A stretch of DNA of 64,000 nucleotides from Desulfobacterales bacterium. GTDB lineage: Bacteria; Desulfobacterota; Desulfobacteria; Desulfobacterales; UBA2245. The position numbers and the translations under genes are program-made. The stretch covers positions 1 to 64,000 of the forward strand of contig JAXGZF010000006.1 in the NCBI GenBank assembly GCA_040771865.1, given 5' to 3'. The notes beneath the pieces were generated by a model. It saw nothing but the letters and a program-made list of their open reading frames with translations, ran no database searches and was not told where the DNA came from. Positions 1,098-10,528 of the stretch are shown one piece after another (positions within the stretch are counted from its first letter, which is position 1; each line of letters starts with the position of its first letter).

Positions 1098-2526
1098 GGG
1101 AGTATTCAAAATTCTGTGTCACGGTTTTTGATTGTCAATCCACCGCCCCATCGAGCGGAAGCGGAAGACAGCTCCGAGAATGGGCCAATTAAAAAGCTCG
1201 TCGGAGGAGCTGTCTTCCGCTGGAGCGGTTTGTAAGAACAAATCTATCAAAGTTTCAAGTCCTTATCCAGTCTTCCCTCAAAAAATATCGCCAACTGAGA
1301 AATGGTCAGTGACCAGTTTTGGATCGGCATCGTCCATTTCTTGCTGGCATTCTGAATCCCCATATACAGCAGTTTCAACAGACTGTCCTGATTTGGAAAA
1401 GCGCCTTTGGTCTTGGTCAGTTTCCGAAACTGACGGTGTACCGCCTCAATGGTGTTGGTTGTATAGATAATCCTTCGAATATCTTCAGGATATTTGAAAT
1501 ACTGACTGAGTCGCTCCCAATTATTCCGCCAGGATGCGATGACAATGGGATACTTCTCATTCCACTTTCCTGCCAGAATATCGAGTTCGGATGCGGCTAA
1601 ATCTTTAGTGCCGGCCTTGTATACGCGTTTCAGGTCGGCCATGAATTCTTTCTGGTTCTTTGAGCCAACGTACTTCAGGGAATTACGGATCTGGTGGACA
1701 ACGCAGAGCTGAATCTCGGTATTCGGAAAAATGGCCTCAATGGCCTCGGGAAAACCTTTAAGGCCGTCAACACAGGCGATCAGGACATCCTTCACGCCCC
1801 GATTCGAAAGATCTGTCAGCACCTGAAGCCAGAAATTGGCCCCTTCATGCTCGGAAATATACAGACCCAGAACTTCCTTCCGCCCCTCAAGGTTGACGCC
1901 GAGGATTGTGTACACCGCCTTGCCGACAACCTTGCCGTTTTCACGGATCTTGTAATGAATGGCATCGAGCCAGACAATCGGATAAATCGATGCCAGGGGC
2001 CGAGCTTGCCATTCTTTGACCGCATGGATAATTTTATCGGTAATGACGCTCAAGGTGCCGGCAGACACCTCAAGACCGTATATCTCCTGAAGATGGGCCG
2101 AGATATCCTGGTAGCTCATACCCAGGCCATAGAGGGCAATTATTTTCTGCTCAATCTCGTCATTCAGGGTAGTCTGATGCTTCTTGACCAACTGGGGAGA
2201 AAAGGTCCCGCCACGGTCCCGGGGGGTACGCAACTCAAAATTGCCATTCAAGGATTTGATGGTCTTCCGGCTTTTCCCATTCCGGCGATTGGCGGTGATT
2301 TCCTGGCCCAGATGCGAATCCAGTTCGCCTTCAAGGGCTGCTTCGGTGAGATTTTTGATTAACGGCGTGAGAATGCCTTCCCTGCCCAGAAGCGGCTTGC
2401 CTTCCTGGATGGCCTTCAGGGCGGTTGAAAAATCAAATTCATGGCCTTCCTGATTCATGTCAGTCCTCCTTGTTTCGCTGACTATATCAGCTTTTGGTTA
2501 ACTGACACAGAATTCTGAACACCCTC
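1098..2526 (-). mobile_element. IS256-family insertion sequence
   Basis: Terminal inverted repeats GGGAGTATTCAAAATTCTGTGTCA (1098-) and revcomp GAGGGTGTTCAGAATTCTGTGTCA (-2526) match 20/24 and enclose a Mutator-type transposase. No target-site duplication visible. Confidence 0.9.
1247..2458 (-). CDS. IS256-family transposase
   Basis: Motifs RNG..., PRDR.G.F.P, WLDA, CVDGLKGF, QLCVVHQIRNS, IYTTNTIE. Confidence 0.96.
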   Translation of the reverse strand: MNQEGHEFDFSTALKAIQEGKPLLGREGILTPLIKNLTEAALEGELDSHLGQEITANRRNGKSRKTIKSLNGNFELRTPRDRGGTFSPQLVKKHQTTLNDEIEQKIIALYGLGMSYQDISAHLQEIYGLEVSAGTLSVITDKIIHAVKEWQARPLASIYPIVWLDAIHYKIRENGKVVGKAVYTILGVNLEGRKEVLGLYISEHEGANFWLQVLTDLSNRGVKDVLIACVDGLKGFPEAIEAIFPNTEIQLCVVHQIRNSLKYVGSKNQKEFMADLKRVYKAGTKDLAASELDILAGKWNEKYPIVIASWRNNWERLSQYFKYPEDIRRIIYTTNTIEAVHRQFRKLTKTKGAFPNQDSLLKLLYMGIQNASKKWTMPIQNWSLTISQLAIFFEGRLDKDLKL

Positions 2527-2657: not shown

Positions 2658-3719
2658 TTATTGTTCATAATAGCTGTAACGGTTTACCTTCCCTGCTCCA
2701 TTACCTACCAGCAGGACTTCTTCCTTGTGCGGGGGTACTTCAATATTGCAAATTCCGGATGAATACCTCAACATTTCTCGGTAAATGATTTTCTTTTCAG
2801 GTGAAAAAATAAATAGCATTGACTTGCCTGTGTAAGATGCATATTTGACAAGAACCGCTAGACAATTATAATTTTCCGCAAATGCCACTTGGCATCCCTT
2901 GATACCATATATAGCCGTCGGGCTTTCTAAAATTTCATACCGCAATAACTCTTCTCCGTTTAAATCCATCAGAATAATGCTATCAGGGCTAAATGTTAAA
3001 ATATTGATTTGATTCATCCAGATAACAAAATGAATTTCAAGGAGCTTTGTTTTCGATTGCCATTGCCTAATTATTTTTCCGTCCCGATCCCAGAATTTCA
3101 CCATAGAACCATGATTTGCAGTGACTATGTATGAACCGGCATCTGATATTAAAAATTCTACACAACTATAATAATCATCGGCTTTTTTCCAGATTACCTG
3201 GCCATTGTTATCAAGGCACACCAACTCGTTTGCAGCAAGGCAATACTCATTCCTTCCGTCCTTATCTAAATCCCCAAATGCCATACCATTGGCCGAAAGA
3301 TCTTGGCGATAGGTCCATAAAGGCTTACCGAATTTATCCAAAACCCCGTAAGTTGATCCACTGCATACCGCTATTTCAAAATCTCCTGGTTTTTTTATTG
3401 AGATTCTTGGATCCATTATGCCTTCGTGCCATTCATACTCAATCTTTGATTTAACTCTTCCATCTGAGTCTGCGATACATAAGCTCGTTGGCCATAAAAT
3501 CCCTATGTCTTCACCTGGAGAGTCGTCCAATTCTCCCTTTATAATATGAACCGCATAACCGGACTCAGACCTATCGATTAAAAACTGACTTTTTACTATC
3601 GTTTTTCCAGCGTCATATTGCTTTGGAATATCTGAAGAACTTACACCGCCAGAAGACATGAGCAGCAGCATAAAGATTAAAAACCCTATTGTATTTTTCT
3701 TGACAGTTATTCTTATCAT
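2658..3719 (-). CDS. Exported beta-propeller / FG-GAP-like protein (possible orphan immunity protein)
   Basis: N-terminal hydrophobic signal; repeats GELDDSPGED, GDLDKDGRNE, LDKFGKPLW, LDNNGQVIW, WDRDGKIIRQW; AT-rich relative to neighbours. Confidence 0.6.
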   Translation of the reverse strand: MIRITVKKNTIGFLIFMLLLMSSGGVSSSDIPKQYDAGKTIVKSQFLIDRSESGYAVHIIKGELDDSPGEDIGILWPTSLCIADSDGRVKSKIEYEWHEGIMDPRISIKKPGDFEIAVCSGSTYGVLDKFGKPLWTYRQDLSANGMAFGDLDKDGRNEYCLAANELVCLDNNGQVIWKKADDYYSCVEFLISDAGSYIVTANHGSMVKFWDRDGKIIRQWQSKTKLLEIHFVIWMNQINILTFSPDSIILMDLNGEELLRYEILESPTAIYGIKGCQVAFAENYNCLAVLVKYASYTGKSMLFIFSPEKKIIYREMLRYSSGICNIEVPPHKEEVLLVGNGAGKVNRYSYYEQ

Positions 3720-3811: not shown

Positions 3812-4120
3812 ATGCGAAAAAAGCGTTACAATTACACCCCCGAAGAAAAGGTATTGATTCTCAAGCGTCATCTGGTCGAGCATATGGCGGTATCAGATTT
3901 ATGCGACGAATATCAGCTTCAGCCGAAGGTTTTTTATGAGTGGCAGAAGCGGTTTTTCGAGAACGGCGCTGCTGCGTTCGGCTTTGATAAGCGCAGCCGG
4001 GAACGCGCCGAAGAAGTCCGCATTCAGCAGTTGGAAGACAAGCTGCGCCGCAAGCATGAGGTGCTCTCCGAGCTGATGGAGGAGCACGTAAAGCTAAAAA
4101 AAGAACTTGGGGAGCTTTGA
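3812..4120 (+). CDS. IS3 transposase OrfA (HTH)
   Basis: RYNYTPEEK...FYEW HTH plus leucine-zipper-like tail; A7 run at 4096-4102 phased as an A_AAA_AAA -1 frameshift site. Confidence 0.92.
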   Translation: MRKKRYNYTPEEKVLILKRHLVEHMAVSDLCDEYQLQPKVFYEWQKRFFENGAAAFGFDKRSRERAEEVRIQQLEDKLRRKHEVLSELMEEHVKLKKELGEL

Positions 4121-5127
4121 CCGGCAGCTGGGTTCCCCATGAAATACGCGATGCCGTCGTTGACTTTGTCCGGCAGTGGAGCGAGAAGGCGCATATTGCG
4201 CTCAAATGTTTCATCCGCTGGCTTTCAGTGTCAAAGAGCAAGTTTTACGCCTGGGTCGGACGATACGGGAAAGCCAATGAGCACAACGCTTTGATTCCGC
4301 GGGACTTTTGGCTGGAGCCGTGGGAGCGCGAGGCGATCATCAGGTTCTGCATCGACAATCCTCTTGAAGGGTATCGTCGGTTGACTTTCATGATGCTGGA
4401 CGCCGACATCGTCGCGGTCAGTCCTGCAACCGTCTGGCGGGTGCTTTCAAAAGCAGGGCTTCTGTCCAGGTGGAGCAGGAAGAAAAGTTTGAAAGGAACG
4501 GGTTTCGTCCAGCCGCTGAGGCCGCATGAGCATTGGCACGTGGACATTTCCTATCTCAACATTCACGGAACGTTTTATTATCTGTGCAGCCTTCTGGACG
4601 GATGCAGCCGCTACATCGTTCACTGGGAGATCAGAGAGCAGATGACGGAATCAGACGTGGAAATCATTCTTCAGCGGGCCAGGGAGAAGTTCTCCGAAGC
4701 CCGGCCATCGATCATTTCGGACAACGGGCCGCAGTTTATCGCCAGGGATTTCAAAGAGTTCATCCGCATTTCCGGGATGACGCATGTGAGAACGTCGCCG
4801 TATTATCCGCAGTCCAACGGCAAGATAGAGCGGTTTCACCAGACGATCAAGAATGAATGCATTCGCCCCGGGGTTCCGCTTTCCCTTGACGACGCGAGAA
4901 GAATTGTAGGAAAGTACATCGATCATTACAACGACGTAAGGCTGCACAGCGCCATCGGCTACGTTTCTCCGGCCGACAAACTGAACGGCCGGGACCAGGA
5001 GATTTTCAAAGAGCGAGACAGAAAACTCGAAGAAGCGCGAAAACTCAGAAAACAAAACCGACGAAAAGCTTTCCCTGGATTCCATATTCCAGGGAAAGAG
5101 GATATTCCACTAACTCAAACAGCATGA
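4117..5127 (+). CDS. IS3 transposase OrfB (DDE integrase core), -1 frame to OrfA
   Basis: GYRR, WHVDISY, SDNGPQF, PQSNGKIERF, YNDVRLHSAIGY. Confidence 0.95.
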   Translation: MTGSWVPHEIRDAVVDFVRQWSEKAHIALKCFIRWLSVSKSKFYAWVGRYGKANEHNALIPRDFWLEPWEREAIIRFCIDNPLEGYRRLTFMMLDADIVAVSPATVWRVLSKAGLLSRWSRKKSLKGTGFVQPLRPHEHWHVDISYLNIHGTFYYLCSLLDGCSRYIVHWEIREQMTESDVEIILQRAREKFSEARPSIISDNGPQFIARDFKEFIRISGMTHVRTSPYYPQSNGKIERFHQTIKNECIRPGVPLSLDDARRIVGKYIDHYNDVRLHSAIGYVSPADKLNGRDQEIFKERDRKLEEARKLRKQNRRKAFPGFHIPGKEDIPLTQTA

Positions 5128-5203: not shown

Positions 5204-5380
5204 TTACTTTTCCTGTTTCTCCTGCCCTATATCCTGATATTCACAGATGCCTTTCTCGTAGTTCCAACGGCCGCCGTTATCTAAACATTTATCGATATCT
5301 AAACATCCCTTCATCCAAAATGCAAAAGCGATCACTAATAGCACCGCTACAGACAGGAGAAATTTTTTCTTCTTATTCAT
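5204..5380 (-). CDS. 58-aa membrane-anchored protein, candidate Rhs immunity protein
   Basis: Not in the ORF track. MNKKKKFLLSVAVLLVIAFAFWMKGCLDIDKCLDNGGRWNYEKGICEYQDIGQEKQEK*; its ATG is 2 nt after the Rhs stop. Confidence 0.8.
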   Translation of the reverse strand: MNKKKKFLLSVAVLLVIAFAFWMKGCLDIDKCLDNGGRWNYEKGICEYQDIGQEKQEK

Positions 5381-5382
5381 GA

Positions 5383-8300
5383 TTAATACCTCGGATTAAG
5401 ACTATTAGGTCGTAATGATCTACACACTTGGCTGCAAGGTGCGTTGGGATCACCATTTCTTCCTTGTTTATTAGCTTCCCTGTCTTTATCACATTCAGAT
5501 CGCGAATCTCTTTTGACATGCTCATCAAATTGCTCACGAACTTCTCCAATTAATTCTGATGCATCCCTACCGCCAACCCCCCGTCTTGATGCTTCACAAT
5601 GTCCCATGCAGTGGAAATACTTGTCTGCACCGATTGTATTGGCATCACGCATATTGCGGTAATTGCGATACAAGTCGTCAGCTCCAATAAAGAAATCGCG
5701 CCAGTAAGTATACGGGTTTACCCATTCGAACAATCCATAAGGATCTATCCGGTTAACTGAATCATTGAGGACATATGCGTAGTGGTTTATTCCTCCTGGC
5801 ATTTCTATTGGATCCGGCCTCAGGTATCTTCCGATATTCGGGTCATAATACCGATGCCAGTTGTAATGCAGTCCGCTCTCCTGATCGAAGTACTGTCCGG
5901 GAAACCTCAGGTTATATTCAAAGCTCACCCCGTCGCCGTCCGGGTCTTCATCGGGAGGCAGGGTTCCAAAGGGATCAAGGTTCCATTTCCAGACCGTGGT
6001 TCCATTGGCATTCTCGATGAGCCGGGGCGTGTTGAGATGATCGGCGTAGATGTAATGGACGCTGCCGGAAGCGACAACCGCGACGGGAATATTGCCCAGC
6101 CAGACGGTTTCACGAATCGCGTTTCCGGATGCATCGTACTCGCCGATCAACTGACCGCCTTCATCGTATGTAAAATATACGGCCGGTTCAGACAAGGATT
6201 CTTTGCATGCGCGCAAACCCTGGGCATTGATCCGGTACGTGAACTGGCCGTTGTCCAGACTGGTCAGACGGTTTCTGGCGTCGTAGCCGTAGACGTTAAC
6301 GCCGTCTGAAATGATGTTGCCCACCGCGTCGTAAGCGTAATTCTTCGCTGCCGGTCCGTCAACGGACAACAGCCGGTTGGTTCCCTCGACATAGGCGTAA
6401 GGGTAACTGACACCGGATTCAGTAAAACTCGTCCGGTTGCCGTTTTTATCATACGCAAAGCCCTGGTCCAGATTGGTTCCGTAAGCGCGGGTCAGGCTGC
6501 TTGAAGCGTCGTACTCAAAGCTGTAAGACGCCTGGGCGTCGCCGAGGCCGGAAATCCGGTTGGCCGGATCGTATTCAATGCTCCGGGTCAAACCGCCAAG
6601 GCTGTGCTGGGACATCCGGGCGTCCAGGTCGTATGCTCTCGAATAGACTCCTCCGTTTCCAAAGGTCCAGCCGCTCACCGGGCCAAAGGCAACATGCCTG
6701 ACGTCGCTGGCCAGCGGCTGGCCGTTGAGCGTCAGACCAGCGATCCGGCCGTTGACATAGGACAGATTGACAACAGCGCCGGAAGGATAGGTCATGCTTG
6801 AAAGCCGACCGAATGCGTCGTATCCGTACCCGGTGATCAAAACAAGACCGCCGGTTTCCTGACGCTTTTCCACGATTCTGCCGTGAAGGTCATAAGACCA
6901 GCGGACCATTCCGCTTGCATCCGCAATCGAACTCAGGCGGCCTAAGGCGTTTTGCCCATCGTCGTAGACGTACGTCTCGACGGTTCCGTCGGCGTAGGTT
7001 GCCCTGGTTAAACGGTTCAGCGCATCATAGGCGTATGTGGTCGCATGATTGTTGGCGTCGGTTGCCGTGTGCAGATTGCCGGCTTCGTCATACTCGTAGT
7101 ATGTAATTCCAGTATCCGGACTTGACTGCTGAATCAAATCGCCCAGTCCGTTGTACAGGAAAGTTGTGGCAAGCCCCTTGGGGTCTTCTACGCGGGTGAT
7201 GTTGTCCTGAGCGTCATACCCGTATCGGGTGACGCCCGACATCGGATCCGTGGTCTGAGCCAAGCGGTTCAAGGCGTCAAAACCGTGAACGACGGTATGG
7301 GTCAGCCCGTCGGTTGCGCTGGTCCGGTTGCCGTTGGCGTCGTAGCCGTAAACAGCGATCGTCTGGCCCTGAGCGCCAAGCGCATCGGTCATCCGGCCCA
7401 ATTCGTTGAACACCCAGTCTCGGGCGCGAACCAGAACGCCGTTCGGATCAAAGATATTCTGACCGGTGATATTGCCGACGCTGTCCAGCGCGTATGAGAT
7501 GCGATTGCCCGATGCGTCTGAAATCCCGGTAAGCCTGTGGGCGTCATCGTATTGATAGTCCAGAAAAGACCCATCCGGCATGGTGATTCGCGTCAGGTTC
7601 CCCGCGCCGTCATAAACAAAGCCGGTGGTTTCTCCGCCGATGTTCCGGGAAATCAGGCGGCCTATCTCATCGTAGGTCAGATCGCTGACCAGACCGTTGG
7701 GATCCACGATTTGAAGCGGACGGCCGTGATCGTCGTAAACCGGCATTTCAGAAACATGGCCCAGGGCGTTTTCCACGGAAATCAGGTTTCCTGAATTGTC
7801 GTCATATTCATAAGTCGTAATGTCCGCAACGTCGGTCCGCGGCCCGTCCGCCGAGATGCGCAAGCCCAGATCGTTGTAAGCGTAGGTCCATGTGCGCGAT
7901 TTGCCGTTCGCCGCGTCGGTTACAGAGTGCTGCGTCAAAAGTCCTCTATCGTCGTATGTAAAGCTTGTTGTCCTGCCGGGCTCTGTAATCAACACCGGCA
8001 ACCTGAAATCCGGATGCCATTCAGTGGCGATGGTGCGCTCTTCCGGGGCGTCCACCGCCTCGGTGCGAGAGGTCTGAAGCCCGCGGTCGTTGTACTCGAA
8101 AACGCTCTTGTTTCCGCTAAAGTCCGTGCGGCTGATCAAAAATCCCCGATCATCATAAGCCGATTCGCTGAACTGACTGCCGCAGTTCGAACATCCGGCC
8201 ACATCCATCGAGGTGGTCTTGGCAACCCCCTGAACCACCGTATAGGCGAAATTTTTTTCGGATCCCAGGGAATCCAAAATCGTGCTGAGGCCCTTGTATT

Positions 8301-9897
8301 TGTAATCGATCGTTACTTTTTCCGCACCGCCGGCGTGTTCGCTCGAAACGGCTCGGCCCTGATCATCGTAGGTCCAGGTGGCAAAACGGATGCTGTTTTC
8401 ATCGATAATCCCGGTCAGGGCGTTGGGATAAGCGGGGTTTTCGTAGAGATAGGTCCGGGTTTTCAAATCCGGTTTTGTCACTCCGGTCAGGCGGTTGTTT
8501 GCATCATAGGCGTAAGTGTAAAGGCCGCCGGCGGGGTCTCTCATGGTTTGAATGCGTCCGTCGGCGCTCCAGGCAAACACGAGGTTTCGGCCGAACGGGT
8601 CGGTTACGGAAACAAGCCTTCCCGAATCATCATAGCTTAGCGTCTGCAAGAGACCGGCCCGGTTGGAAATGGACGCAAGCCGCCCATTCGCATCGTAGAT
8701 TTCAACAAAATCTTCGGATGTTGTATATCGCCAGCCGTTCGCGGTCTGTTCCAGGCGGTCGGCGACGTCCGGATCGCCAACCCACTTCTTGCGGCTGAGT
8801 TTGAACCTGTATTCCTTTCCGTCCGGACGGTAGGCGACCGTTTCCTTGCTGTTCACCTTGGAAATCGATCGGTCGTAACTGCCGCGCCAGTTCGCCCCCA
8901 GAGCGCCTGAATACGTCGAAACGCTGTTGTAGTGGCGTTTGAACTCCAGGGGAAACACCCCGGCGCCAGAGTAATCGGTTTCGACCTGATATTTGTTGCC
9001 GATTGCGGCGTGAATCGGATTGCCAGATCGAGGCGCTTCGCAGTCGGGATCTCCGGTATTCTTTCCGATCTGGATCTCTTCACCGCCGACCGTTATGGCA
9101 AAATCGACCTGATCGCCGGGCGCGGCGATCGAGGTTGCGGAAATCAAGTAGGCCCCGGCTTTGCTCCCCCCTGTAAAATACGCCGAAGCCACCCCGTTCG
9201 CATCGGTTGCGGCTGTAATCGATGGTGATCCTGGGGCATCAACAACTGCGGCAAGCCCGGCCTTTGCGCCGTCCGGCTTCTGGGTAAGGGTGAAAACCAC
9301 CGGTTCGCCTGCAAACGGCGTGACCCCGTCCGGATACAGCAGCTGGGCCTGCAAAGGCTGAGTCGAGGAAGTCTTGAGCGCGATGATCTGGTTGTCCCCG
9401 GAATATTTCTTGAATATCAGGGGAACCAGCTCAAATGGCTCAACAATCACGCCGTTTCTATTGAGACATTCAACAAGCCAGGAGCCAGGCGTCTCGTAGT
9501 TAAAGGAAGCAGCCACCTCCCAGATTACATCGTCGAGAAAAGGATGGTCCGCATCGCCGCAGGTCAGCGATCCATTTGTAGAAACCCAGCAATCCGTGTC
9601 GTAATCATATGTTAGAGAACTTGCACCCTTGATGGTGCCATCGGGTCGAATCCAGCGCCAGGTTAATTTTTCGCCGTCCTGCGCATCGTAAATTTCAACC
9701 TCCAGACCCACCATGCCATCTGTTATGTAGACCTGCCCGCCAGTCTGAAAGACGGATTGTCCGTTGTCGGGAAAATCCGCTCGGGTTTCATAACGGTACA
9801 GCCCCCGGGAGAACGCCGAAAAGGCGAAAACCCAGGAACCAGTAAAAATGACAATACACACGATCGCAACAGCCGAAAGCAGGCGTCTCCAACTCAT
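5383..9897 (-). CDS. Rhs/YD-repeat polymorphic toxin with signal peptide, Ig-like domain, DUF6531 and SAA-like C-terminal domain
   Basis: Start MSWRR after an AAGGAGAGG RBS; Sec-type signal; SGDNQ...TDANGVA Ig-like segment; GNPI...FKRHYNS; many YD repeats; core [25 protein letters not shown]...DPYGL; 115-aa tip. Confidence 0.95.
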   Translation of the reverse strand: [1504 protein letters not shown]

Positions 9898-10528
9898 GGA
9901 ATCCTCTCCTTTTTCAGATTGTTTTTCTGATCGTTCTGGATTCAAGTATTTTTATACGGGCGGTTCTTTCAATCTTCTCCCAATTCAGCTCTGGTCGAGT
10001 CATATCTTCAGGCGCTTCAGTACGCGGCGCCCTTCCCTCGCATGGACTTTGTTTCAACAGCCGATCGCAAAACCGGCATTTTCGAAACAATTATTGCATT
10101 CGAACGAGACATGCGACGGTGAACGCCGCTGTTTTGTTTGAGCAAGTCACTCGAATCGTGCAGAGCATCAGGTGCAAGAACGTGAGCCTGAATTCACCCT
10201 CGATTTCCGGAAATCCTCACGATTATTCCGAAGAGAGTTGAATTCTTGATTTTTTCACGCCGCGGAAGGAACTGGCAGGCGCATGGTCGAACAATTCAAG
10301 AGCGGGAATTTCTGTGGTGCGAATTAAAAAATACTTTTAGCGAAATTGTTGGGGTTCGTAAAGAAAAAATTTCGCCGAGATTCATTTTTTGCGAATTTTG
10401 TTGCAACGACTCCGATCTTCGGCTTGATCTGTTTTCAAGATGGTTCGAGGTCGAACCTGGTTAACCAATTGATATTGATCGATAAGTATTGAGAACACCG
10501 CCCGGAATCGGGTTCGACAAAGCGGAAA

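Follow-up and report, generated by a model that had tools for sequence, protein, structure and literature searches.

A 64,000-nucleotide stretch of DNA from a Desulfobacterales bacterium (contig JAXGZF010000006.1, positions 1 to 64,000; hereafter the window) very probably carries, on its minus strand, an Rhs polymorphic toxin gene whose product ends in a bacterial serum amyloid A (SAA) domain of the prok-SAA family, together with the immunity gene of this toxin. What SAA, one of the major acute-phase proteins of humans, primarily does in biochemical terms is still debated. Its bacterial relatives, which appear as toxin warheads with a dedicated antidote and have their polar pocket residues in common with the animal SAAs, therefore offer an experimental handle on SAA function, and the present locus is predicted to be a very small and self-contained pair of a 115-amino-acid (aa) toxin and a 58-aa immunity protein. 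Prok-SAA-tipped Rhs toxins, their immunity partners and a bacteria-to-animal origin of SAA are already in print from computational work (Burroughs, Nicastro and Aravind, eLife 2025, PMC12419801; drawn on here and below in part), and the locus is a further, confirmed member of this published concept. What is added here is the sequence motif of the immunity partner with its linkage statistics, a cysteine pattern in the tip, and a lead to the Bacteroides effector BteO.

The tip (115 aa; 5386..5730, minus strand) follows directly on a DPYGL motif at 5731-5745, where a first reading made from the sequence alone (the sequence-only reading) had placed it. That reading had also seen, against human SAA1, about 22 identities in a core block of 39 residues, collinear to the terminal Tyr. 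In the phmmer alignment exactly 22/39 identities were counted over the block from GADDLYRNY to RRGVGG, and the Pfam SAA family (PF00277) matched the tip with 98.3 bits (E=3.7e-28; gathering cut-off 30.8) covering positions 3-102 of the 102-position profile and residues 9-115 of the tip, through the terminal Tyr (residues 1414-1520 of the Rhs protein, whose residue numbers follow its 1520-aa frame throughout). A phmmer search of the tip against PDB sequences gave 13 matches at E<=1, eight of them SAA chains, ranging from human SAA1 (4ip8_A, E=7.8e-16) to 6dso_A (2.8e-12), while the remaining five were lignin peroxidases with E values of 0.057-0.96. By these sequence comparisons the resemblance of the tip to SAA1 is far above chance.

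The fold prediction agrees with the sequence. An alignment of 33 tip-related sequences (A1) served as input both to AlphaFold2 and to a profile search of the PDB. The resulting model of the tip (predicted local distance difference test score, pLDDT, 96.3) has five helices at residues 6-30, 36-48, 52-71, 77-92 and 99-102, and this predicted four-helix cone with a short fifth helix is superposable on solved SAA structures. With Foldseek, seven PDB structures matched the model at E<=2.4e-4, every one of them SAA1 or SAA3, with template modelling (TM) scores of 0.78-0.84 when scaled to query length and 0.88-0.93 when scaled to target length; the following match had an E value of 3.7. The two comparisons that the sequence-only reading had called for, with the Pfam SAA profile and with SAA1/SAA3 structures, thus both bore out its assignment. 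When the A1 profile was run against PDB sequences, its domain part matched SAA chains only, the DPxGL flank of some rows matched Rhs, TcC and teneurin cores, and TelC, Wnt and BteO gave no match at E<=10. By profile, predicted fold and conserved residues, the tip is a true SAA homologue.

The domain layout of the protein that carries the tip is that of an Rhs polymorphic toxin. The gene (5383..9897, minus strand) was delimited from the list of open reading frames (ORFs), the translation and Pfam matches; its open frame extends uninterrupted over 5383..9945 on the same strand and would give 1520 aa from a TTG at 9945, but the likely start, judged from the sequence, is the ATG at 9897, which lies 5 nt behind a Shine-Dalgarno sequence (AGGAGAGG, 9903-9910) and yields a product of 1504 aa. 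By hydrophobicity and by eye, the N-terminus (MSWRRLLSAVAIVCIVIFTGSWVFAFSAFS; 9808..9897, minus strand) looks like a signal peptide or membrane anchor, and the top hydrophobic 19-residue windows of the whole protein begin at residues 22-26 (Kyte-Doolittle mean 2.3-2.4); a signal-like start was likewise seen by eye in 6 of 10 long relatives. DUF6531 (8803..9024, minus strand, residues 308-381; PF20148, E=1.5e-18) precedes the YD/RHS repeat shell and RHS core (5746..8802, minus strand), in which RHS_repeat (PF05593) matched in 13 stretches (E=5.9e-91, repeat matches at 6775-8697) and PF03527 (RHS core) gave a weak match at residues 1296-1329. The RHS/YD-repeat shell that defines such toxins is accordingly present, as judged from PF05593 and DUF6531. 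The core ends, on the minus strand, in DPYGL (residues 1401-1405), the expected autoproteolytic site, and the C-terminus of the protein reads NRIDPYGL followed by FEWVNPYTYW...NSLNPRY, with the stop codon at 5383-5385. The DPxGL segment aligns to solved Rhs, TcC and teneurin cores (8h8b, 9c4k, 6h6e and others; E 5e-4 to 0.2), and by analogy with the Rhs family the chain would be cleaved after DPYGL.

Relatives of the tip occur in the same setting. A word-indexed protein search identified 21 relatives of similar length (from 23 candidates) and 31 longer ones (from 93 candidates); RHS-type Pfam domains (PF05593, PF03527 or PF25023) are listed for 25 of the 31 longer proteins, and PAAR for none of the 31. 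A scan of one genome per species gave 170 encoding stretches among 295 candidates, and the best 80 of these 170 were taken as the set of loci used below (L010-L089). They come from Pseudomonadota, Thermodesulfobacteriota, Nitrospirota, Bacteroidota, Bdellovibrionota, Myxococcota, Acidobacteriota, Cyanobacteriota and other phyla. The tip hidden Markov model matches all 80, and, without exact counts, the SAA domain runs to the stop codon in most of them and a DPxGL-like motif stands just upstream in many. One Pseudomonadales metagenome-assembled genome holds two copies of the tip and immunity pair on two contigs (L023 and L025), with tips on zero-length terminal branches of the tree described below and 81-aa partner ORFs that differ at one residue.

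To describe residue conservation, 80 bacterial tips (that of the window and those of 79 of the 80 loci, L071 being too short and dropped) were compared with 16 hand-chosen animal SAAs from molluscs, echinoderms, amphioxus, spiders, fish, an amphibian, a turtle, a bird and mammals. H40, E66, D83, A86 and G90 are present in 80/80 bacterial and 16/16 animal sequences, and N87 in 79/80 and 16/16. K37 and R91 are each kept in 75/80 bacterial tips and all 16 animal proteins, whereas D69, also found in 75/80 bacterial tips, is Gln in 16/16 animal SAAs. The putative pocket of the tip comprises K37, H40, E66, D69, D83, N87, G90 and R91. The conserved H40, E66 and D83 and the helix 4 sequence A86-N87-K-Q-G90-R91 agree with the H/E/D sites and the sNxxGR motif given for the SAA-Wnt clade (PMC12419801), to which the prok-SAA family belongs within the Lipocone superfamily.

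A second conserved feature separates the bacterial tips from the animal proteins. The window tip has five Cys, as the sequence-only reading had counted, at tip positions 41, 45, 80, 99 and 103; C41, C99 and C103 occur in 80/80 bacterial tips, C45 in 77/80 and C80 in 34/80, while each is found in 0/16 animal SAAs, in which the segment around 99-103 is deleted. In the predicted model a single turn separates C41 from C45 on helix 2 and C99 from C103 on helix 5, an arrangement in which two disulfides would pin helix 5 to helix 2 and leave C80 free. Since the four conserved Cys would staple these helices together, the tip appears to be built for an oxidising compartment.

A maximum likelihood tree of the same 96 sequences (IQ-TREE, 119 columns, LG+C20+F+G4, 1000 ultrafast bootstraps) is unrooted and rests on a short alignment. 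In it a single branch (support 100/99, stem length 1.2) sets 16/16 animal SAAs apart from bacterial tips that are much more diverse than the animal group. The bacterial rows closest to the animals are L073 and L051 (97/85; L051 on a long branch), followed by L029 (94/82). The window tip groups with L010 and L011 (100/96) inside an 11-row set (95/90) that is mainly from Thermodesulfobacteriota, and it is not specially near the animal SAAs. As far as these sequences go, the tree accords with the one bacteria-to-animal transfer that has been published and is silent on the direction of transfer. The expectation that the tip would bear on the origin of the animal acute-phase protein was borne out as to a single, well-supported animal group among diverse bacterial tips.

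Directly downstream of the toxin lies the candidate immunity gene (5204..5380, minus strand), identified by its ATG 2 nt past the toxin stop, by motif linkage and by AlphaFold2. The 58-aa product opens with a basic N-terminus, which gives way to a hydrophobic stretch and, after it, to IDKCLDNGGRWNYEKGICE, and carries the motif D30-x-C32-L-D34-x-G-G-x-W39...C46. AlphaFold2 (pLDDT 87.1) predicted a helix at 3-34, a probable membrane anchor, followed by a hairpin with strands 38-40 and 45-47, and in this model C32 at the helix end and C46 in the second strand are placed such that they could form a disulfide. In 62/80 loci the motif C-[LSTA]-[DN]-x-G-G-x-[WF] is carried by a small ORF, typically about 50 aa long, that overlaps the toxin stop or starts within a few nt of it. 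In all six frames of the 409,973 bp covering the 80 loci the motif was matched 62 times, always at the tip-adjacent site and 0 times elsewhere, and it has a single occurrence in the 64-kb window. The toxin and small-ORF pair recurs in 62/80 loci from many phyla, the stop codon of the one overlapping or nearly touching the start codon of the other, which is the signature of self-protection against a shared target. By this linkage the toxin has the directly downstream cognate immunity gene typical of Rhs/YD toxins, the protection itself being putative. The earlier proposal of an SAA-fold domain used as a released toxin warhead therefore stands as to homology, warhead position and a linked immunity-type gene, with release as an expectation from the Rhs family.

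Alignment of 50 partner ORFs (A2: that of the window and 49 of 60 extracted, at most 70 aa long and free of X) showed D30, C32, L33, D34, G36, G37, W39 and C46 to be invariant; invariance of C32, G36 and G37 is forced by the motif and L33, D34 and W39 are limited to the choices it allows, while D30 and C46 lie outside it. A profile of the partner family, searched against 1.84 billion proteins, matched 2871 cluster representatives at E<=0.001, of which 436 reach E<=1e-10; some of the weaker matches may owe their score to the hydrophobic helix. Among 301 sampled genomes of the phylum the SAA tip was found in three, that of the window included, with an adjoining small ORF in 3/3. The same 301 genomes gave three partner matches without an SAA tip, none of which is good evidence for an orphan immunity gene: one has an internal TGA, another is without the second Cys, and the third, a weak match, falls in an overlapping frame rich in GC. 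The first of these (G094:C28:10172-10309; immunity-profile match E=4e-14, one internal TGA) may be a decayed orphan immunity gene.

Nine of the 18 motif-less loci (L013, L016, L026, L033, L035, L051, L061, L078 and L089) have a second recurrent partner directly downstream, a protein of 138-209 aa with a signal or lipobox by eye and the sequences GW[IL]PxF[LF]P..SAxxI.E.H[ND]LDTN and WWP; at L029 the downstream DNA was too short to judge the partner. Several of the loci with this second partner are among the bacterial tree rows closest to the animal SAA group. In two Bdellovibrionota loci (L027 and L063) the hairpin motif is C[LS]DRGGRF and the ORF, of about 103-107 aa, extends into more hydrophobic segments, so that the immunity module appears, from sequence, to be fused to additional membrane helices.

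Pfam has no family for the 58-aa protein (5207-5380, minus strand). Membership of MgrB (NF007635), a small PhoQ-inhibiting membrane peptide, was rejected in NCBIfam at 16.9 bits against a cut-off of 40 (E=0.0054); the likeness is probably one of build only, that of a single-pass protein with periplasmic Cys. The prok-SAA partner named in PMC12419801 has four conserved Cys and four strands, and this four-Cys immunity domain was rejected for the small ORF, which has about 20 residues past the helix and two conserved Cys. The node table of the same paper lists 195 Prok-SAA loci and 53 of Imm-SAA, the latter by name and locus count only, so that Imm-SAA is at most a possible counterpart of the 58-aa family; the helix-plus-hairpin DxCLDxGGxW...C partner is not described in the main text. 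That paper presents prok-SAA as a polymorphic-toxin tip and as the progenitor of metazoan SAA, and cites Zamocky and Ferianc 2023 for bacterial SAA; our literature search found no bench test of a prok-SAA toxin. The sequence-only reading was right on both counts when it said that bacterial SAA-like sequences had been noted before and knew of no demonstrated toxin function.

With tip and partner described, the activity that had been suggested for the tip can be weighed. The sequence-only reading took it for an amphipathic, lipid-binding, oligomerising bundle with a plausible membrane-directed activity; such a bundle would insert into or depolarise the membrane, possibly as amyloid-like assemblies. 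Animal SAA does bind lipids and retinol and forms oligomers and fibrils (PDB titles: 6py0, retinol-bound SAA3; 6pxz, trimer; 6mst and 7zky, fibrils), and the candidate immunity protein is predicted to be anchored in the membrane. Conservation, however, sits in the polar pocket residues and not on a hydrophobic face, and since K37, H40, E66, D83, N87 and G90 are invariant or nearly so, a catalytic or ligand pocket fits the tip better than detergent-like action. Moreover, the SAA-Wnt clade has low overall hydrophobicity and is predicted to be soluble (PMC12419801), two disulfides between the four conserved Cys would lock the bundle against the unfolding needed for amyloid, and a 15-residue hairpin would be an odd antidote to a pore or detergent-like agent. 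We therefore consider a membrane-directed bundle improbable.

Our best explanation is that the toxin, exported by Sec and independent of a type VI secretion system (T6SS), conveys a periplasmic enzyme; taken as a whole, we regard it as evenly balanced between right and wrong. The YD-repeat shell would enclose the 115-residue prok-SAA domain, and self-cleavage after DPYGL would free it. The tip consists of the SAA domain only, without a translocation module, and would work from the periplasmic side of the inner membrane of a rival. There its pocket, formed by K37 and H40 of helix 2, E66 and D69 of helix 3, and D83 and N87 of helix 4, could cut the phosphate or pyrophosphate link between lipid carrier and head group, with lipid II and other undecaprenyl-linked envelope precursors as candidate substrates. 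The producer would be shielded by the 58-aa protein, whose one membrane helix may present a disulfide-stapled hairpin on the outer side of the inner membrane, in a position to bind and block the toxin.

The chemistry in this proposal is taken from three experimentally studied Lipocone relatives, TelC, VanZ and YfiM. For the Lipocone superfamily, PMC12419801 predicts chemistry on phosphate-linked lipid head groups with a His of helix 2, a Glu of helix 3 and an Asp of helix 4, and notes that the immunity partners are all membrane proteins or lipoproteins, implying extracytoplasmic action. TelC, the sole experimentally characterised Lipocone toxin tip according to that paper, cuts lipid II, and its activity is confined to the outside of the cytoplasm. 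YfiM and VanZ are Ca2+-dependent pyrophosphatases of lipid-linked oligosaccharides (bioRxiv 10.64898/2026.09.16.752124; drawn on in part), and replacement of K28, H31, E72 or D91 of YfiM by Ala abolished activity, while D87 is only aligned to an essential VanZ residue. Four DUF2279/YfiM sequences from genomes of the phylum have an invariant D-K-x-x-H, E-x-x-D and D-x3-N/D-x2-G. In an hhalign comparison of the tip profile with these four, at a score that is not significant, GADKYFH of the tip fell on GGADKTGH, RExxD on MExxD and DxxANxxG on DxxSNxxG; the tip stretches facing the three invariant motifs read DKYFH, EQFD and DREANKQG. An enzyme that works on lipid-linked envelope precursors from the periplasmic side is the reading of the tip that we find best supported, with a probability that is even or just short of it.

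Several points weigh against this explanation. Fold match and sequence homology do not count as independent of each other, because SAA structures of the PDB are in the AlphaFold2 training data, and disulfide pairing and pocket geometry were derived from helix positions alone. The immunity motif is near-invariant across phyla, which is unusual, as immunity proteins of polymorphic toxins normally diverge fast. We know of no member of the SAA family, bacterial or animal, that has been shown to be an enzyme. For a Sec-exported Rhs protein of a diderm without T6SS, no route into the periplasm of a rival is accounted for. The position of the essential D91 of YfiM is Asn in the SAA clade, and the hhalign match of the tip to YfiM/DUF2279 did not reach significance (Prob 0.72%, E=0.078); the superfamily link therefore depends on the published HHpred and PSI-BLAST results, in which iterative searches from bacterial SAA reach YfiM/DUF2279 (PMC12419801).

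The top fold match to the tip model outside SAA, a weak one, was BteO. If the maltose-binding protein (MBP) part of the matched chain has about 370 residues, as we assume, the aligned chain range 393-547 covers H144, E168, D187 and D191 of BteO at a near-constant offset. BteO is a periplasm-acting T6SS effector of Bacteroides fragilis, under which cells elongate, form blebs and lyse (PMC12541434; drawn on in part). Mutation of R143, H144, H167, E168, D187 or D191, located on helices a3-a6, abolishes both its toxicity and its binding to OmpA, and the spacing H144-E168-D187-D191 (24, 19 and 4 residues) is close to that of H40-E66-D83-N87 in the tip (26, 17 and 4). Furthermore, human SAA has been reported to bind E. 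coli OmpA (Hari-Dass 2005, as cited in PMC12419801). The tip might thus kill without catalysis, by binding the periplasmic, peptidoglycan-anchoring C-domain of OmpA-family proteins and loosening the link between outer membrane and wall in the manner of BteO, the His, Glu and Asp residues then forming a binding groove.

Here the immunity partner argues the other way. The BteO immunity protein mimics the OmpA C-domain with a four-stranded sheet and three helices (PMC12541434), whereas the window partner is a 58-aa protein with helix 3-34, a two-stranded hairpin and no Pfam family. In addition, loss of one OmpA did not end BteO toxicity, and although glycosidase and amidase activities were excluded for BteO, lipid-linked precursors are not among the activities assayed in the sections of PMC12541434 drawn on here, so that BteO may itself be an enzyme. 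We consider OmpA binding in place of catalysis unlikely. No mention of SAA, Wnt or Lipocone was found in the BteO paper, and among the library papers searched none was found that links BteO with any of the three. It is a tentative and on balance doubtful idea that SAA-type domains, BteO and the Lipocone enzymes share one pocket of His, Glu and Asp-x3-Asn/Asp on three helices. If true, either OmpA binding would be ancestral in the toxin clade and inherited by animal SAA, or BteO would be an enzyme on lipid-linked wall precursors, and the 115-aa tip with its 58-aa antidote would be the simplest system for learning what SAA does to bacteria.

As to delivery, the genome of the window (2.98 Mb in 13 contigs, 98.29% complete) gave 0 matches to TssC/VipB (PF05943), Hcp (PF05638) and PAAR (PF05488), and neither the PAAR or VgrG/Hcp coupling nor the genomic T6SS of a T6SS-delivered Rhs effector was found. 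Because the genome is without these markers and the N-terminus is signal-like, the toxin is, judged from sequence, a Sec-type, T6SS-independent Rhs protein, and an Rhs toxin in a genome without T6SS makes one ask by which route toxins of this kind are delivered. The same genome encodes a second, unrelated Rhs protein on contig C5 (L090:4284-9884; 1866 aa, 25% identical to the Rhs protein of the window) with CARDB, DUF5648, DUF6531 and RHS repeats and a tip without Pfam match, followed by large PKD/BACON- and Lcl_C-domain proteins.

The toxin module is bounded by an IS3-type insertion sequence (IS) on the plus strand (3812..5127; orfA 3812-4120, orfB 4117-5127; Pfam HTH_Tnp_1, rve and rve_3), which stops 77 bp short of the immunity gene, the two lying on opposite strands. 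Beyond this element an IS256/Mutator-type transposase is encoded at 1247-2458 (minus strand), and between the two IS elements, at 2658-3719 (minus strand), a 353-aa protein with a signal-like N-terminus and a weak, sub-threshold match to the beta-propeller family PF25292 (22.8 bits against a cut-off of 26.8). The other flank of the module holds a helicase, proC, a FadL-type porin and cobalt transport genes. Neither the SAA tip nor the small ORF was found in the sole other genome of the genus searched, and with its IS flanks the module therefore looks like an accessory, mobile-flanked island.

This position between IS elements, the absence from the one congener and the lack of a delivery machine among the markers searched (TssC/VipB, Hcp and PAAR) would also suit a locus that is no interbacterial weapon, but an anti-eukaryote effector, a module of the cell surface or for adhesion, or an inactive relic that IS insertions have stranded, its small ORF being an accessory or release factor. 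Such an origin is very improbable in our view: the 1520-codon frame is uninterrupted and has a good ribosome-binding site, the pocket residues are all kept, and the toxin and small ORF recur as an overlapping or near-abutting pair in many phyla (62/80 loci).

Among known systems, the Sec-exported Rhs toxin proposed here shares the YD-repeat shell, DUF6531, DPxGL core end, variable tip and adjoining immunity gene with the other Rhs/YD toxins (T6SS PAAR-Rhs, TcC and WapA). It differs from the T6SS PAAR-Rhs toxins in that its genome is without PAAR, a VgrG-linked context, Hcp and TssC. The N-terminus looks Sec-dependent as in WapA of Gram-positive bacteria, yet the relatives of the window's host are diderm. 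The lipid-linked-oligosaccharide pyrophosphatases YfiM, VanZ and Llp1 (bioRxiv 10.64898/2026.09.16.752124) have a motif register in common with the tip (DKxxH, ExxD, and DxxxNxxG or DxxxDxxG), in an alignment that is not significant, but are integral-membrane housekeeping enzymes, unlike a secreted toxin tip, and the SAA clade has Asn at the second helix 4 position.

TelC-TipC of Streptococcus intermedius, an LXG toxin pair of the type VII secretion system (T7SS), is the template for the proposed chemistry: TelC is a lipid II phosphatase and a diffusible Lipocone tip that acts outside the cytoplasm (PMC12419801). It belongs to another Lipocone clade and is delivered by the T7SS of a monoderm, unlike the window toxin, and PDB sequence and structure searches gave no sequence or fold match between tip and TelC. 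TipC can be likened to the 58-aa partner as a membrane-associated immunity protein acting outside the cell, although it is a much larger, different protein. BteO-BtiO (PNAS 2025, PMC12541434) offers a helical antibacterial effector that acts in the periplasm and has a His/Glu/Asp/Asp spacing nearly equal to that of the tip pocket. Animal SAAs (human SAA1, 4ip8/4ip9; mouse SAA3, 4q5g/6pxz) are secreted as free-standing proteins, each with a signal peptide of its own; they are without the bacterial Cys, have the C99-C103 segment deleted and Gln where 75/80 bacterial tips have D69, and form one long-stemmed group (100/99) separate from the subgroup of the window. Closest are the published prok-SAA toxins (PMC12419801), which have the same domain family in the same C-terminal place of RHS-type toxins, the same core of five helices, of which helix 5 is short, the sNxxGR motif, the H/E/D pocket and membrane- or lipid-anchored immunity partners, and from which, in the parts of that work drawn on here, the window toxin differs in nothing essential.

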